From: Candidatus Eiseniibacteriota bacterium
GTDB taxonomy: Bacteria > Eisenbacteria > RBG-16-71-46
Reading direction: 5' to 3'
NCBI GenBank assembly: GCA_963707915.1
Contig: OY970178.1
Coordinates: 480,001-544,000 of the forward strand
DNA length: 64,000 nt
The position numbers and the translations under genes were made by a program. Below are positions 13,790 to 56,015 of this stretch, piece by piece; positions within the stretch are counted from its first letter, which is position 1, and each line of letters starts with the position of its first letter. A model generated the notes under the pieces. That model had not been told where the DNA came from and did not search any database. It saw only the letters and a list, made by a program, of their open reading frames with translations.

Positions 13790-15322
13790 ATGTCCAAGCT
13801 CGTCGAATGCGTCCCGAACTTCTCGGAAGGCCGCCGCCGCGAGGTGGTGGAGGAGATCATGCAGGCCATCGCTTCCGTCCCCGGCGTCACGCTGCTCGAC
13901 AGCGAGATGGACGCGGACCACAACCGCTCGGTGCTCACCTTCGCGGGCGAGCCGGAGCCGGTGATGGAGGCGGCGTTCCGCGCGGTGAAGCGCGGCAGCG
14001 AACGGATCGACCTGAACCAGCACCGTGGCGAGCACCCGCGCATGGGCGCGGCCGACGTGGTGCCGTTCGTGCCGGTCGAGGGGCTGACGCTCGAGGACTG
14101 CGCGGAGCTGGCGCGCCAGACCGGCCGGCGCATCGGCGAGGAGCTGGGGATCCCGGTGTTCCTCTACGAGGCGGCCGCCTCCCGCCCGGACCGGGTGATC
14201 CTCGCCGACGTGCGGCGCGGCGAGTTCGAGGGGCTGCGCGAGCTGATCGGGAAGGACCCGAAGAAGAAGCCCGACTTCGGTCCCGAGCGCATCCACGCGA
14301 CTGCGGGGGCGACCGCGGTGGGGGCCCGGCGCTTCCTCGTGGCCTTCAATGCGAACCTGAACACGCCGGACCTGCGGGTGGCGAAGGCCATCGCCGCCTC
14401 GATCCGCGAGCAGAGCGGCGGCCTCAAGAACGTGCGGGCGCTCGGCTTCTCGATCGAGGGCGGGCGGCGGGCCCAGGTGAGCATGAACCTGGTGAACACC
14501 GAGGCCACTCCCATCCACCGGGTGCTCGCCCTGGTGCGCGCCGAGGCGGCGCGGCACGGCGCGGCCGTCCAGGGCTGCGAAGTCGTGGGGCTGGTCCCCG
14601 AGTACGCGATGCTCGACGCCGCCGAGCACTACCTGCAGCTCGAGAACTTCCGCCGTGACCAGGTGCTGGAGTTGCGCCTCAAGACGCCGCCGCTCACCGA
14701 GGCGGTCTCGGTGGCGTCGTTCTTCGACTCGGTCGCCTCGCCGACCCCGACGCCCGGGGGCGGCACGGTCGCGGCCTTCGTCGGGGCGCTGGCCGCGACC
14801 CTGCCGACCATGGTGGCCGGCCTGACGCTGGGCAAGAAGAAGTACGCCGCGCACGAGGAGGCGATGAAGGAGGTGCGCCGCAACGCGGCGACGCTGCGCG
14901 GGCGGCTGCTGGGGCTGGCGCGCCGGGACAGCGAGGCCTTCGAGGCGGTGCTGCGGGCGCGGAAGCTGCCGCAGGCCAGCCCCGCCGAGGCCGAGGCGCG
15001 GGAGAAGGCCATGGCGGCCGCGGACTTGGCGGCGATGCGCGTGCCGCTCGAGACCGCGCAGGCGTGCCTCGAGGTGCTCGAGCTGGCCGCCGAGGTCGCG
15101 GAGAAGGGCAACATCAATGCCGCGAGCGACTCCGGGGTGGCCGGGCTGCTGGCGAACGCCGCGTCGGAAGGGGCGCTGCTGAACGTGGAAATCAACCTGA
15201 AGTCCGCCGGGCCATCCGCCGATAAGACCGACATCGAGATGAGCCTGCAACGCATCCGGACAGCGCTCGGCCCAATGGCGCGGCGCTGCCAGGATGCCGT
15301 GCATGCCGCCTTGAACGCTTGA
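13790..15322 (+). CDS. ftcd: Bifunctional glutamate formimidoyltransferase / formiminotetrahydrofolate cyclodeaminase
   Basis: LVECVPNFSEGR, DADHNRSV, HRGEHPRMGAADVVPF; C-terminal cyclodeaminase PTPGGG, GNINAASD, LNVEINL. GGAG RBS before ATG 13790. Confidence 0.93.
   Translation: MSKLVECVPNFSEGRRREVVEEIMQAIASVPGVTLLDSEMDADHNRSVLTFAGEPEPVMEAAFRAVKRGSERIDLNQHRGEHPRMGAADVVPFVPVEGLTLEDCAELARQTGRRIGEELGIPVFLYEAAASRPDRVILADVRRGEFEGLRELIGKDPKKKPDFGPERIHATAGATAVGARRFLVAFNANLNTPDLRVAKAIAASIREQSGGLKNVRALGFSIEGGRRAQVSMNLVNTEATPIHRVLALVRAEAARHGAAVQGCEVVGLVPEYAMLDAAEHYLQLENFRRDQVLELRLKTPPLTEAVSVASFFDSVASPTPTPGGGTVAAFVGALAATLPTMVAGLTLGKKKYAAHEEAMKEVRRNAATLRGRLLGLARRDSEAFEAVLRARKLPQASPAEAEAREKAMAAADLAAMRVPLETAQACLEVLELAAEVAEKGNINAASDSGVAGLLANAASEGALLNVEINLKSAGPSADKTDIEMSLQRIRTALGPMARRCQDAVHAALNA
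15198..15225 (+). promoter_or_regulatory. Sigma-28 (FliA/WhiG)-type promoter inside the ftcd 3' end, upstream of the TPR gene
   Basis: TGAAG-N15-GCCGATAA; same spacing as the sites at 21198 and 32735. Confidence 0.65.
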
Positions 15323-15397
15323 CAGGGACTGCGTCATGGCGGGAGGGCCGCCGCATCCGGGTCCGGCGCGGTGGCGTGCTCCGCGGAGAGAGCCAGC

Positions 15398-17296
15398 TTG
15401 GAAAAGGCGATTGACATCAAGCGACGGGCCCAGCGCTGTCTCCAGAGCGGTGATCTGGACGGCGCCCTGAGCGAGTACGACAAGCTCACCCGCGCAGAAG
15501 ACTCCGAGCCCATCAACCTGGTCGTCATGGCGGACCTCCTCTACAAGAAGGAGGACCTGGCCGAGGCGTCACGGCGCTACCTGCAGGCGGTTGAAGCCTA
15601 CAAGGGGGCGGGGCTCTACAAGAACGCCATCGCGGTCTGCAAGAAGATGGCGCGGCTGTCGCTCTCGCTCGCCGCGGTGCTCCAGCATCTCGCCGAGCTC
15701 CACGCGCTGGACGGCCTGAGCACCGAGGCGGCGCTCTATTACCAGGAGTACGCCGAACACCTGGCCCACGAGCAGAACTTCCGCGGCGCCGCCGCCAGCC
15801 TGCGCAAGGCCTTCGACGCCTCGCCCGAGAACCCGCGGCTGCTGGAGAAGGCGGCCGACTGGCAGCAGCAGGCGGGGGATGTGACCGGGGCGGCGGCATC
15901 GCTGATGGAGGCGTCCCGGCAGTACGCCCGCCGGGCGCAGACCGAGGACGCCACCCGGGCGCGGACGCGGGCGGATGAGCTGGCGCCCGGCGCCGGCACG
16001 GCGCGCCCGGCCCCGGTGAGCGCGGAGACGGCCTCGGCCGCGCCCGCGGCGGCGGATCCCGTGGTGGTCGAGCCCGTGGTGGTCGAGCCCCGCGCTGCCG
16101 AGGCCGGCGCCCCGGCACCGGAGCCGGCTCCGGCCCCGGCCGCGAGTGCCCCCGAGCCGGCCGCGCCCGATGCCGGGGACGCGCCCGCCGGGGAGATCGT
16201 CGACGGCCTCGAGCACCAGCGGACGTTCGTCTCCCCGCTGCGCGGCGAGCCGCAGCCCGAGGCGGAGGCCTCGGAGGCGACGCCTCCGTCGCCCCCCGAA
16301 CGGCACTTCGGCTCACCGCAGGAGTCGGCGGCCGATCCCGGGGACGACTCGACCCCCGCGACCAGCGCGATCTCCGCGATGCCGGAGATGTCGGAGATCG
16401 AGGACCTGCTGAGCCTGGCGGCCGAGCGGTTCAAGCAGGGGGAGCAGGACCTGGCAGCCGACGCGCTGGTGGAGGCGGCACGGGCCTACGAGGCGCTCGA
16501 GCGCCTGGAGAGCGCGGCCGCGATCTACCGCAGCCTGGGACGCAGCACGCATTGCACGCCCGAAGTCCTGGCCCTCTGGCTCCGGAACTGCGAGCTGCGC
16601 GAAGAGCCCCGCGAAGCGGCGGAGGTCGCCTGCGGGCTCGGCGACCGTGCCCTGAACGACGGCGACCTGGACGGCGCGCGCGCCTGGTTCGAGCGTGCCC
16701 TGAAGCACGTCCCGCACCACGAACTGGCGACCCGCCGGATGCAGCGGATGGGGCCGGGCGCGCCGGTGGCTGCGCCGGTCGAGGAGCAGGGCGCGCCGGG
16801 AGGGGCGAAGGGCCCGAACGGCCGGGTCGAGGTCACCCTGGGCCGCGCGCAGGCCGTCACGCTCGACCTCGGTTCGCTGATCGCGGAGTTCCGCACCGGC
16901 ATCGAGTCGCAGATTTCGGGCGACGCCCAGAGCCACTATGATCTCGGCATGACCTACCGGGAGATGGGACTGTTCGACCAGGCCGTCGAGTGTTTCCGCA
17001 CCGCGGCGCGCGACCCCAGGTTCGCCTCGCGCGCGGCCGAGATGGTCGGCCGCTGCCTGCTGGACGAAGGGCGATTCGACGAGGCGGTCGAGGAGTTCAC
17101 GCGCGCGCTGAAGGGCCTCGAGGACGCGTCCGAGGCGGGTATCTGCCTGCGCTTCCAGCTCGGTCTGGCCCACGAAGTCGCCGGCCACGCGCCCGACGCG
17201 CTGGCCGAGTTCGAGCGCGTCTACGCCGTCCAGCCGAACTACCCGGATGTGGCCCAGAAGATCGGGGTGCTCCGCAGGGCCCTGGAGCGGGTGTGA
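15398..17296 (+). CDS. TPR protein, SgmX-like architecture (N-terminal TPRs, Pro/Ala linker, C-terminal TPRs)
   Basis: TTG start after GGAGAG. NAIAVCKKMARL and DAQSHYDLGMTYREMGLFDQAVECF TPR motifs. Confidence 0.75.
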   Translation: MEKAIDIKRRAQRCLQSGDLDGALSEYDKLTRAEDSEPINLVVMADLLYKKEDLAEASRRYLQAVEAYKGAGLYKNAIAVCKKMARLSLSLAAVLQHLAELHALDGLSTEAALYYQEYAEHLAHEQNFRGAAASLRKAFDASPENPRLLEKAADWQQQAGDVTGAAASLMEASRQYARRAQTEDATRARTRADELAPGAGTARPAPVSAETASAAPAAADPVVVEPVVVEPRAAEAGAPAPEPAPAPAASAPEPAAPDAGDAPAGEIVDGLEHQRTFVSPLRGEPQPEAEASEATPPSPPERHFGSPQESAADPGDDSTPATSAISAMPEMSEIEDLLSLAAERFKQGEQDLAADALVEAARAYEALERLESAAAIYRSLGRSTHCTPEVLALWLRNCELREEPREAAEVACGLGDRALNDGDLDGARAWFERALKHVPHHELATRRMQRMGPGAPVAAPVEEQGAPGGAKGPNGRVEVTLGRAQAVTLDLGSLIAEFRTGIESQISGDAQSHYDLGMTYREMGLFDQAVECFRTAARDPRFASRAAEMVGRCLLDEGRFDEAVEEFTRALKGLEDASEAGICLRFQLGLAHEVAGHAPDALAEFERVYAVQPNYPDVAQKIGVLRRALERV

Positions 17297-21146: not shown

Positions 21147-21197
21147 GGGCCTTGCAATCGGCATCCCCGGCGCGGCTTTCCGCCTGCGGATTCTGGT

Positions 21198-21225
21198 TCA
21201 GGAGTCCGGGGAGGCCGGCCGATAA
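21198..21225 (+). promoter_or_regulatory. Sigma-28-type promoter of the pilB operon
   Basis: TCAGG-N15-GCCGATAA in intergenic DNA. Confidence 0.7.
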
Positions 21226-32734: not shown

Positions 32735-32762
32735 TCAAGTCCAATCCGCGTACCGCCGATAA
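32735..32762 (+). promoter_or_regulatory. Sigma-28-type promoter of pilMNOPQ
   Basis: TCAAG-N15-GCCGATAA in intergenic DNA. Confidence 0.75.
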
Positions 32763-32915
32763 GCACCATGACAGGTCACCCGACTGGGTCCCCGGATCCA
32801 GGGGTGGCCCGGAGTTCGGCCCGTTGTCGTTCGTTCCGCCGCGAGTGGCCAGAGAGCCCCGCGGTCCAGCCCGCCGTGCCGGGTCAGGCCCGCACCGCGT
32901 CCAGGGAGTGAAGAC

Positions 32916-54719: not shown

Positions 54720-55778
54720 GTGAGCGAGCGACGACGCATCGAGGTGCGCCTCACCGCGCAGGTCGCCTGCGCTGGCTGAGCGTCCAAGCTGGGTCCGGCG
54801 GACCTGAGAGCCATCCTGAGCGGGCTGCCCGCACGACCGCGCGACCGGCGGGTGCTGGTGGACCAGTCCACCCTCGACGACGCGGGCGTCTTCGCCTTCG
54901 GCCGTGGCACGGCGCTGGTGCAGACGGTGGACTTCTTCACGCCGGTGGTGGACGACCCCTACGACTTCGGGCAGATTGCCGCGGCCAACGCGCTGTCCGA
55001 CGTCTACGCCATGGGCGGGCAGCCGCTCACCGCGCTGGCCATCCTGTGCGTGCCCGAGAAGCAGGTCGTTCCGGAGGTGCTGCGCGAGGTGCTGCGCGGC
55101 GGGCAGGACAAGATGCGCGAGGCGGGCGTGAGCATCGTGGGCGGCCACTCGGTGACCGACCCCGAGCTCAAGTTCGGCTACAGCGTCACCGGGGTGGTGC
55201 AGCGCCGCCGGCTGCTCACCAACGCGGGCGCGCGCCCGGGGGACCGCCTGGTGCTCACGAAGCCGCTCGGGACGGGCGTGCTGGCCACCGCGCTCAAGCA
55301 GGGCCGGCTCGACGCCGCGCAGACGCGCCGGCTGACGCGGACGATGGCGGCGCTCAACCGCGGCGCGGCCGAGGCGGCGGTGGAGTTCGGCGCGCACGCC
55401 GCGACCGACGTCACCGGTTTCGGGCTGGTCGGCCACGCGGCGCAGCTGGCCGAGGCGAGCGGCGTGACCCTTCGCCTGAGGCCGGTGCGGGGTTGGTTCC
55501 TGCCCCGCACGCTCGAGCTGGCGGAGCAGGGCGCGGTGGCGGGCGGGCTGAGGCGCAATCGCGAGTACTACGCCCCGGCGGTGGGCGGCGACGCGCTCGC
55601 GGAGCCGCTGGCCCTGGCCCTGCACGATCCGCAGACCTCGGGCGGCCTGCTGATCGCCTGCTCGTCCCGGCGGACGGCCGGCCTGCTCGTGGCGCTCAAG
55701 CGGCGCCGCGTGTGGGCCGCCGAGCTGGGCGAGGTGCTGCCGCGCGCGGCCCACGCGCTCGAGTTCGTCGCTCCCTGA
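54720..55778 (+). CDS. selD: Selenophosphate synthetase, selenocysteine-containing (UGA at codon 20)
   Basis: GTG 54720 reads ...RLTAQVACAG-U-ASKLGP..., in frame with DDAGV, QTVDFFTP, NALSDVYAMGG, GGHS, TDVTGFGL, DPQTSGGLL. The TGA is at 54777-79. Confidence 0.92.
54788..54811 (+). promoter_or_regulatory. Candidate bacterial SECIS hairpin
   Basis: GCT-GGGTCC-ggc-GGACCT-gag-AGC; the G-containing apical loop starts 17 nt after the UGA. Confidence 0.6.
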
Positions 55779-55917
55779 CGGCGCGACGACCGCGCGAAGC
55801 GGCCGCGGCGGCCGGCGCCGGCCGGTCCGGACCGGGTTGGCGCGCGGGGCCGACTCTCTGGTAAGAGTGTAGCAATGGATCTCGTGCGAGCGGGCCCCGG
55901 TGGGGCGGCAGCGGTGC

Positions 55918-56015
55918 GGGAACGAATGGGATCTGGTGGTCCCCGGGGACTTCAAATCCCGCGGTCGGGCGTTAAGAGCGTCCGAGGTGGGTTCGATTCC
56001 CACGCGTTCCCGCCA
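55918..56015 (+). tRNA. selC: tRNA-Sec(TCA)
   Basis: 98 nt; 6-bp D stem GGGATC/GGTCCC, anticodon loop CTTCAAA, 9-bp variable arm, T arm GTGGG-TTCGATT-CCCAC, G discriminator plus CCA. Confidence 0.93.

Follow-up and report, generated by a model that had tools for sequence, protein, structure and literature searches.

The 3′ end of ftcd in an uncultured Candidatus Eiseniibacteriota bacterium appears to be dual-use DNA: conservation among orthologs shows that its codons also spell a predicted sigma28 (FliA/WhiG)-type promoter kept by selection. The same conservation shows that selection on this putative promoter fixes the residues Leu-Lys-x5-Ala-Asp-Lys in the encoded enzyme. We consider the promoter real with high confidence, and it probably drives the gene of an SgmX-like TPR protein that follows ftcd. 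A long hairpin encoded behind the promoter is, judging from the comparison of relatives, real but local, being limited to some lineages.

Gene setting and ortholog samples

The window, as the whole 64,000-nt stretch analysed is called here (positions 480,001 to 544,000 of contig OY970178.1), carries hutU, hutI, ftcd, and the TPR gene, followed by a type IV pilus cluster of pilB, pilT, pilC, pilS/R, a pilin, and pilM-Q. The ftcd gene closes the hutU-hutI-...-ftcd run, and the regulatory elements lie within its last ~45 codons (Table 1). This tail could be aligned with solved cyclodeaminases. Elsewhere in the window, an AIRS-domain gene at 54852-56011, which we take to be SelD-like, adjoins a tRNA-Sec gene.

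The first ortholog set contained 30 loci, 29 of them with both the ftcd tail and the TPR start; the remaining one (L018) was dropped as its contig ends in ftcd. A second search, overlapping the first, gave 64 loci, of which 61 had upstream DNA and 17 were duplicates of the first set. Leaving out the 3 without upstream DNA, the 17 duplicates, and L169 (box present, stop at +95), the combined set came to 72 loci, and a quick tree was made of them. Among the control regions, 16 of 17 were usable (L182 had no ftcd DNA), and 28 of the 30 pilB loci were kept after exclusion of two without the CCGATA box. One unpublished genome (G038) enters the tallies over 61 genomes solely as a count. In the ftcd of L002, the frame read back from the stop codon was open for only 151 residues, which suggests a frameshift or an assembly error.

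Table 1. Features in and around the ftcd tail and at related promoters; window coordinates except for csrA
Feature	Position	Strand	Basis or remark
ftcd, glutamate formimidoyltransferase-cyclodeaminase	13790-15322	+	Pfam FTCD_N/FTCD/FTCD_C; TIGR02024 over cut-off
Upstream box GTGGAAATC	15185-15193	+	codons V-E-I; resembles the GTGCAGATT box of pilB promoters
Predicted sigma28 (FliA/WhiG)-type promoter CTGAAG-N15-GCCGATAA	15197-15225	+	inside ftcd codons; conservation
Predicted -35 element CTGAAG	15197-15202	+	Leu-Lys codons; CTG 29/29, AAG 29/29 (protein-based codon alignment)
Predicted -10 element GCCGATAA	15218-15225	+	Ala-Asp-Lys codons; 15 nt 3′ of the -35; GCC 29/29, GAT 29/29
Long hairpin	15243-15306	+	arms 15243-72 / 15277-306; loop 15273-76 (4 nt)
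Claimed pseudoknot 5′ strand, rejected	15275-15281	+	loop end and 3′ arm of the hairpin
Candidate CsrA-type site ACAGGGA (ACARGGA / ANGGA)	15322-15328	+	just 3′ of the ftcd stop
Claimed pseudoknot 3′ strand GCGTCAT, rejected	15331-15337	+	better partner 15316-15325 in close relatives
Small hairpin GGCGG/CCGCC	15338-15352	+	present here; poorly kept, 66.7% of cells paired in 6 close loci
Shine-Dalgarno GGAG, conserved GCCAGC hexamer, and TTG start codon	15385-15400	+	
SgmX-like TPR protein gene, 632 aa, inferred promoter target	15398-17296	+	TPR Pfam matches; best NCBIfam match SgmX
Same promoter type before pilB	21197-21225	+	box in 28/30 pilB loci (one truncated, one variant)
Same promoter type before pilM	32735-32762	+	
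csrA with its own promoter TCAAG-N15-GCCGATAC	L082:14133-14470 (G000:C1:1186132-1186463)	-	between mglA and the fliA cluster

A predicted promoter in the codons of ftcd

The promoter box was found at the same codons in 29/29 loci of the first set and in 61/61 second-search loci with upstream DNA, 95-110 nt ahead of the end of the stop codon. The proposal of the first-pass annotation that this DNA encodes protein and a promoter at once was thus strongly supported, beyond what the sequence alone had told its author. Codon choice was fixed together with the residues. In the codon alignment, GAT encoded the Asp of the -10 element in 29/29 loci but had a share of only 0-0.5 in 15 further columns of conserved Asp; the spacer codons between the -35 and -10 elements varied freely among the 29 loci. 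The invariant CTGAAG that precedes the -10 by 15 nt does not match the published -35 boxes TAAA, T(A/C)AA, and CTCA. Transcription is expected to start near 15232, as we assume from the usual spacing.

In the codon alignment of the upstream box, Glu was encoded by GAA in 20/20 loci with Glu, and ATC was found in 29/29; the box is possibly an activator or UP-like site. A conserved GTGCAGATT-like box, perhaps an activator site, was also seen ~34 nt 5′ of the -10 box at the pilB loci (L031-L060), and a similar GTG(G/C)AAATC stands at the ftcd-internal promoter.

The three loci of family f2 (L178-L180) showed that the box can move. Their usual codons lacked it, and CTCAAG or CTTAAG-N15-GCCGAT(AG/GA) appeared 19 codons downstream in 3/3 loci, within the last ~14 ftcd codons, where the peptide LK-x5-AD was re-made. 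Despite the three loci, this relocation was counted as one evolutionary event. Since the promoter peptide was re-made at the new place, the invariant residues appear to follow the promoter. Among the controls, the box was absent in 3/3 ftcd genes without a TPR gene behind them. It was also absent from the ftcd tail of L174, a distant ftcd-TPR locus; L174 keeps the ftcd-TPR order and a CAGGGA ~20 nt ahead of the start codon.

Neither an intrinsic terminator nor a sigma70 promoter was found in window positions 15000-15600. The TTGACA at the ftcd stop was considered as a sigma70 -35 element and rejected, as no -10 accompanied it and it was lost where the stop moves.

The codons of the tail had also been described as atypical, and the counts agreed. 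A or T occupied the third position in 13/452 codons (2.9%) of the ftcd body, compared with 5/20 in the hairpin and 3/13 in the promoter; in 23 distant orthologs, the shares were 8.7% in the body and 21-33% in the promoter and hairpin segments. Only ACA and GAT among the five codons named (CAA, ACA, CCA, GAT, and CAT) had their third base in a hairpin pair.

A probable sigma factor, its proposed regulon, and the TPR gene

Two FliA/WhiG genes were found in this genome (TIGR02479 matches over cut-off), at G000:C1:1179955-1180626 and 1687953-1688624. Such genes were present in 58/61 genomes and flagellin in 20/61, and 21/29 promoter-bearing genomes had no flagellin. The widespread FliA paralog lay near mglA, csrA, a sigma54 two-component system, a MinD/FlhG-like ATPase, and a GGDEF gene. 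These observations are consistent with a flagellum-independent FliA/WhiG-type sigma factor, which we think likely to act at this promoter. The two paralogs in this genome and the departure of the -35 from the textbook TAAA weigh on the other side. The flagellar region of the genome (G000:C1:1687953-1713635) holds the second FliA, two flagellin-like genes, and motA, and is patchy among relatives. No Pfam match to FlgM was found in this genome.

A scan of the genome, for which the list of -35 elements was chosen by eye, showed that 28/177 -10-like boxes had a -35 at the right distance, compared with 0-3 at seven shifted distances. The genes behind the boxes included pilB, pilM, the TPR gene, mglA, csrA, and motA, genes for a TadE-like pilin, HDOD, HD-domain, and kinase proteins, and some that were unrelated or unannotated. 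The -35 in this regulon was mostly TCAAG, TGAAG, or TTCAG. The presence of mglA, which stands behind the same promoter type, was supported by PDB matches (E 1.8e-72). The -10 box of the pilB promoter ends at 21225, exactly 6000 nt after that of the ftcd-internal promoter at 15225, which was taken as a coincidence. TGACAGG was seen 6-7 nt 3′ of the -10 box at pilM (window 32769-32775) and mglA (G000:C1 near 1188680, minus strand), and at the ftcd stop too; the copies at pilM and mglA are not CsrA-type sites because the final A is missing.

The TPR protein matched the SgmX model NF052243 with an E value of 8e-27 and 93.9 bits, against a cut-off of 1800 for this model of 1065 positions. "SgmX-like" is used here as a label only because the score was far below that cut-off. 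No real similarity was found between the TPR gene and another TPR gene of the regulon. Its TTG start was kept in 70/72 loci, and the hexamer GCCAAC or GCCAGC stood before the start in 54/72.

A long hairpin in part of the family

The first-pass annotation had described a bulged hairpin of about 20 bp (15246-67 with 15282-15303), which implies a 14-nt open loop. The letters and positions were as given there, and 18 pairs were present in that segment; the bulges and the open loop were not. The register was gap-free (i+j=30549) with symmetric mismatches, and the stem ran on to a loop of 4 nt. In this genome, the arms formed 22 Watson-Crick pairs and one G-U pair in 30 positions and may extend to 15234-38/15310-14. 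Of the 2903 registers in ftcd, this one scored highest both here and in 5 close orthologs; in the 23 distant orthologs it came 6th.

Across the 29 loci, 66% of cells were paired, compared with 62% in shuffles (0/500 reached the observed value), and RNAalifold found no consensus hairpin. The folding z against synonymous resampling averaged -0.18 and was -1.99 in this genome. The whole leader, which had been read as structured, folded no better than shuffles (z -1.22; 27/200 as good). Separation by lineage showed where the signal lay. The pairing score compared with its synonymous null was 21.8 to 16.9 in a 10-genome clade, with an excess in 10/10 members, and 16.2 to 14.1 in 23 basal loci, with an excess in 19/23, whereas it was 11.0 to 11.3 in a 33-genome clade and 12.8 to 13.1 in 6 outgroup loci. 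In the 33-genome clade, the hairpin was lost and the promoter was unchanged. A family-wide RNA motif was rejected, as no 29-locus consensus existed and pairing in the 33-genome clade and the outgroup loci stayed at the null level. The earlier idea of a structured RNA was thus supported for some of the family, as a simple long hairpin and not as a pseudoknot.

Within the 10-genome clade, 86% of cells were paired and the covariation score was reached by 0/500 shuffles, although such shuffle counts, like the other hairpin counts here, overstate the case because loci related by descent are not independent. The earlier annotation had named a lack of compensatory change as grounds for refutation; in the hairpin of this clade, 6/26 pairs changed on both sides. 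Pair 15254:15295 was seen as A-U, G-C, and C-G, with Ile, Val, or Leu on one side and Asp, Asp, or Glu on the other. At pair 15270:15279, a Gly-to-Asp change went with Ala-to-Val, and several of the two-sided changes in the clade came about through such amino-acid changes. G-U outnumbered A-C by 29 to 8 in the clade with the hairpin, compared with 106 to 112 where the hairpin was lost. An RNA on the plus strand is favored over template-switch polishing of DNA, since the G-U excess occurred only where the hairpin was kept. The synonymous excess of the register ranked only 97 of 2903 in the 23 distant loci, and the protein sequence by itself accounts for much of the pairing. On balance, the covariation suggests that the hairpin is selected as RNA in this clade, a view toward which we lean without great confidence.

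The claimed pseudoknot

The loop-side segment ATGGCGC had been proposed to pair with the downstream GCGTCAT, followed by the small hairpin GGCGG/CCGCC, in a pseudoknotted leader of the same design as at pilB. The complementarity was there in this genome, with 7 pairs (one G-U) in the first helix and 5 in the second, and the offsets of +50 and +106 from the end of the -10 box held at both ftcd and pilB. ATGGCGC is mostly stem, however, because the long stem continues to the 4-nt loop. The helix did not go beyond chance: among the 29 loci, only this genome formed all 7 pairs, and at least 7 pairs turned up in 24% of 1500 random combinations of a loop with downstream sequence. Compensatory change was not observed either, as 0/7 pairs showed a two-sided change in 6 close loci, and in 4 same-genus relatives GCGTCAT was unchanged while the 5′ strand changed. 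RNAalifold on the 6 close loci paired GCGTCAT with the stop-codon segment 15316-15325. According to a nested-fold estimate only, opening both strands costs 12.7 kcal/mol, compared with -8.4 kcal/mol from the helix, before any pseudoknot penalty. Rfam gave no match at the gathering score and three weak matches of 14-17 bits, far under the thresholds.

The design supposedly shared with pilB fared no better, since the pilB pseudoknot formed 8/8 pairs only in this genome (1/28 loci with the box). The small 3′ hairpin was also rejected; it was poorly kept in relatives. The identical offsets are inexplicable except by chance and find no support in the relatives, so they were regarded as a coincidence. 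The pseudoknot is very probably a chance match.

A candidate CsrA-type site after the stop codon

The CsrA SELEX consensus is given as RUACARGGAUGU, with a bridging range between two GGA sites of 10-63 nt (PMC7652899). After the ftcd stop, ANGGA was present in 24/29 loci of the first set and 31/43 further loci (55/72), compared with a background of 6.8% in 1901 stop-spanning windows of this genome, and was absent in all 6 outgroup loci. It stood at +103 to +109, kept its place when the stop moved, and lay inside codons in L030. All four letters were seen at N, with G in 52/55. A second GGA was found within 10-63 nt in 45/53 measurable loci (range 22-83; 59 nt here, in the Shine-Dalgarno), which is a weak test since any GGAG Shine-Dalgarno supplies a GGA. 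The GGA lay in a loop in a 6-locus consensus, and its unpaired probability was 0.57 here and 0.05-0.89 over 24 loci. csrA was present in 53/61 genomes. The pilB leaders had no fixed distal ANGGA, FliW had no Pfam match in this genome, and a rough scan for small RNAs rich in GGA turned up no convincing CsrB-like candidate. A conserved upstream ORF after AGGGA was rejected, its frames being mixed. We give regulation by CsrA through this candidate site about an even chance.

Proposed mechanism and alternative explanations

As a whole, the data seem best explained, in a judgment we hold with reasonable though not strong confidence, by a promoter, a lineage-limited hairpin, and CsrA acting on the RNA of the TPR gene, with no pseudoknot. 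A flagellum-independent FliA/WhiG-type sigma factor would start an RNA near 15232, from which the SgmX-like TPR gene would be expressed independently of the histidine-utilisation genes and together with pilB, pilM, mglA, and csrA. The last ~30 ftcd codons would form an untranslated leader of ~165 nt, which in this lineage would fold into one long hairpin near the 5′ end. This stem-loop most likely serves to stabilise or insulate; ribosomes would melt it in a transcript that reads through from the hut genes. A CsrA dimer would probably bind both ACAGGGA and the Shine-Dalgarno GGA 59 nt away and damp translation from the weak TTG start.

The invariant Leu-Lys and Ala-Asp-Lys might instead be needed by the enzyme, the promoter look being incidental. 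NVxINL(K) is indeed a family motif in solved cyclodeaminases, and class-level relatives carry GAE or GPD at the corresponding place. We regard this as extremely improbable, as synonymous positions are fixed too (GAT 29/29, GAA 20/20), FchA (7vg4) has Phe in place of the invariant Asp, family f2 has the pattern shifted along the helix, and ftcd genes with no TPR gene behind them lack it. Another reading, possible though in our opinion unlikely, accepts the promoter as the only functional element and sees the hairpin as a side effect of encoding an amphipathic helix with GC-rich codons, passed down in the clade and polished by quasipalindrome template switching. From the amino acids alone, the hairpin register already ranks 1-2 among 2903 in close loci and 24th in distant ones, the 33-genome clade lost the hairpin with no change in the promoter, and template switching has been described as making imperfect inverted repeats more perfect (PMC7202029). 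The excess over the synonymous null in 10/10 clade and 19/23 basal loci speaks against a side effect. A process at the DNA level would also not lead one to expect that G-U is retained over A-C solely in loci with the hairpin. A pseudoknotted leader acting as a regulatory RNA switch, with its design shared with pilB, is scarcely credible: the 7 complementary pairs here and 8 at pilB, their identical offsets, and the 76% of cells in 6 close loci that can pair when G-U is allowed are outweighed by the full helix in only 1/29 ftcd and 1/28 pilB loci, the chance level, the missing two-sided changes and Rfam family, and the energy balance.

The AGGGA after the stop may also serve ribosome standby or re-initiation, or be bound by an RNA- or DNA-binding protein other than CsrA; we hold this to be conceivable but somewhat doubtful. 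It could presumably pair with the 3′ end of 16S, a start codon lies 3-14 nt downstream in 23/55 loci, and in several loci AGG can form a stem with a CCT further downstream. A ribosome signal does not agree with the 32/55 loci that have no such start codon or with the mixed frames. The motif, moreover, stays equally far from the promoter where the stop has moved, even inside codons in L030, and its variants AAGGA, ATGGA, and ACGGA fit ANGGA.

Implications

Type IV pili and their polarity module are the most likely targets of the flagellum-independent FliA in this uncultured group, and the rewiring of sigma28 to pili would be extended beyond Actinomycetota. More speculatively, and with considerable reserve, we suggest a Myxococcus-like pilus polarity module (SgmX-like protein, MglA, PilB, and PilM) run by a flagellum-free sigma28 that may also transcribe csrA, in which case the SgmX-like gene would be under a feed-forward brake; the promoter and the conditional hairpin in the last helix of the enzyme might then drive its amino-acid evolution (Gly-to-Asp with Ala-to-Val; the peptide moved by 19 codons). 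The ftcd tail appears to be a clear example from nature of regulatory DNA that fixes amino acids: in the protein alignment three residues seem essential, yet they follow the promoter and reappear elsewhere in the helix when it moves. Searches of regulons confined to intergenic DNA would miss such promoters. The pseudoknot, as a chance match, is of no consequence. A literature search, largely confined to open-access papers, found no account of a link between FliA, mglA, type IV pili, and CsrA in Eisenbacteria.

Comparison with known systems

Stem-loops at the 5′ end, such as that of the E. coli ompA leader, stabilise mRNA. The hairpin resembles the ompA leader in being long and close to the predicted 5′ end, but it doubles as coding sequence for the upstream gene, is limited to some lineages, and has a putative function. 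The proposed CsrA site resembles the dual-site repression by CsrA/RsmA described for E. coli glgC (PMC7652899) in having the consensus core ACAGGGA and a second GGA in the Shine-Dalgarno; unlike there, no consistent presentation in a hairpin loop and no FliW or CsrB-like antagonist was found here.

SgmX is reported as an MglA-dependent pilus activator of Myxococcus (PMC7668184). The TPR protein is similar to SgmX of Myxococcus xanthus and Bd2492 of Bdellovibrio as presented in that source, the best-matching part being the C-terminal TPR region, and this genome has mglA too, behind the same promoter type. It is shorter than SgmX, with 632 aa against the 1065 positions of the model. A defining property of SgmX is the binding of MglA-GTP by its C-terminal TPRs.

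WhiG, of the sigma28 family, is reported to control type IV pilus genes in Rubrobacter and Actinoplanes (PMC8325347, PMC12871210), and the flagellar -10 consensus is given as GCCGATAA (PMC8325347). The promoters studied here are like those WhiG sites in the -10 GCCGATAA, the spacer of 15-17 nt, and the position before pil and c-di-GMP genes. The -35 boxes reported for the two genera are T(A/C)AA and CTCA, compared with mostly TCAAG, TGAAG, or TTCAG here. The present regulon also belongs to a different phylum and includes Myxococcus-type mglA, an SgmX-like gene, and csrA. Because the ftcd promoter, unlike the WhiG sites, lies inside coding sequence, the intergenic searches described in these reports would have missed such a site.

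Conserved internal promoters in the sense direction are known, for example at the iTSSs of Shewanella (PMC4161247). The ftcd promoter is similar to those described there in that it lies within the upstream gene, is under purifying selection, and is predicted to drive the downstream gene. It differs from the Shewanella cases as reported in being conserved across two families instead of a genus, in fixing amino acids, in having a predicted start site, and in its relocation inside the same helix in a third family.
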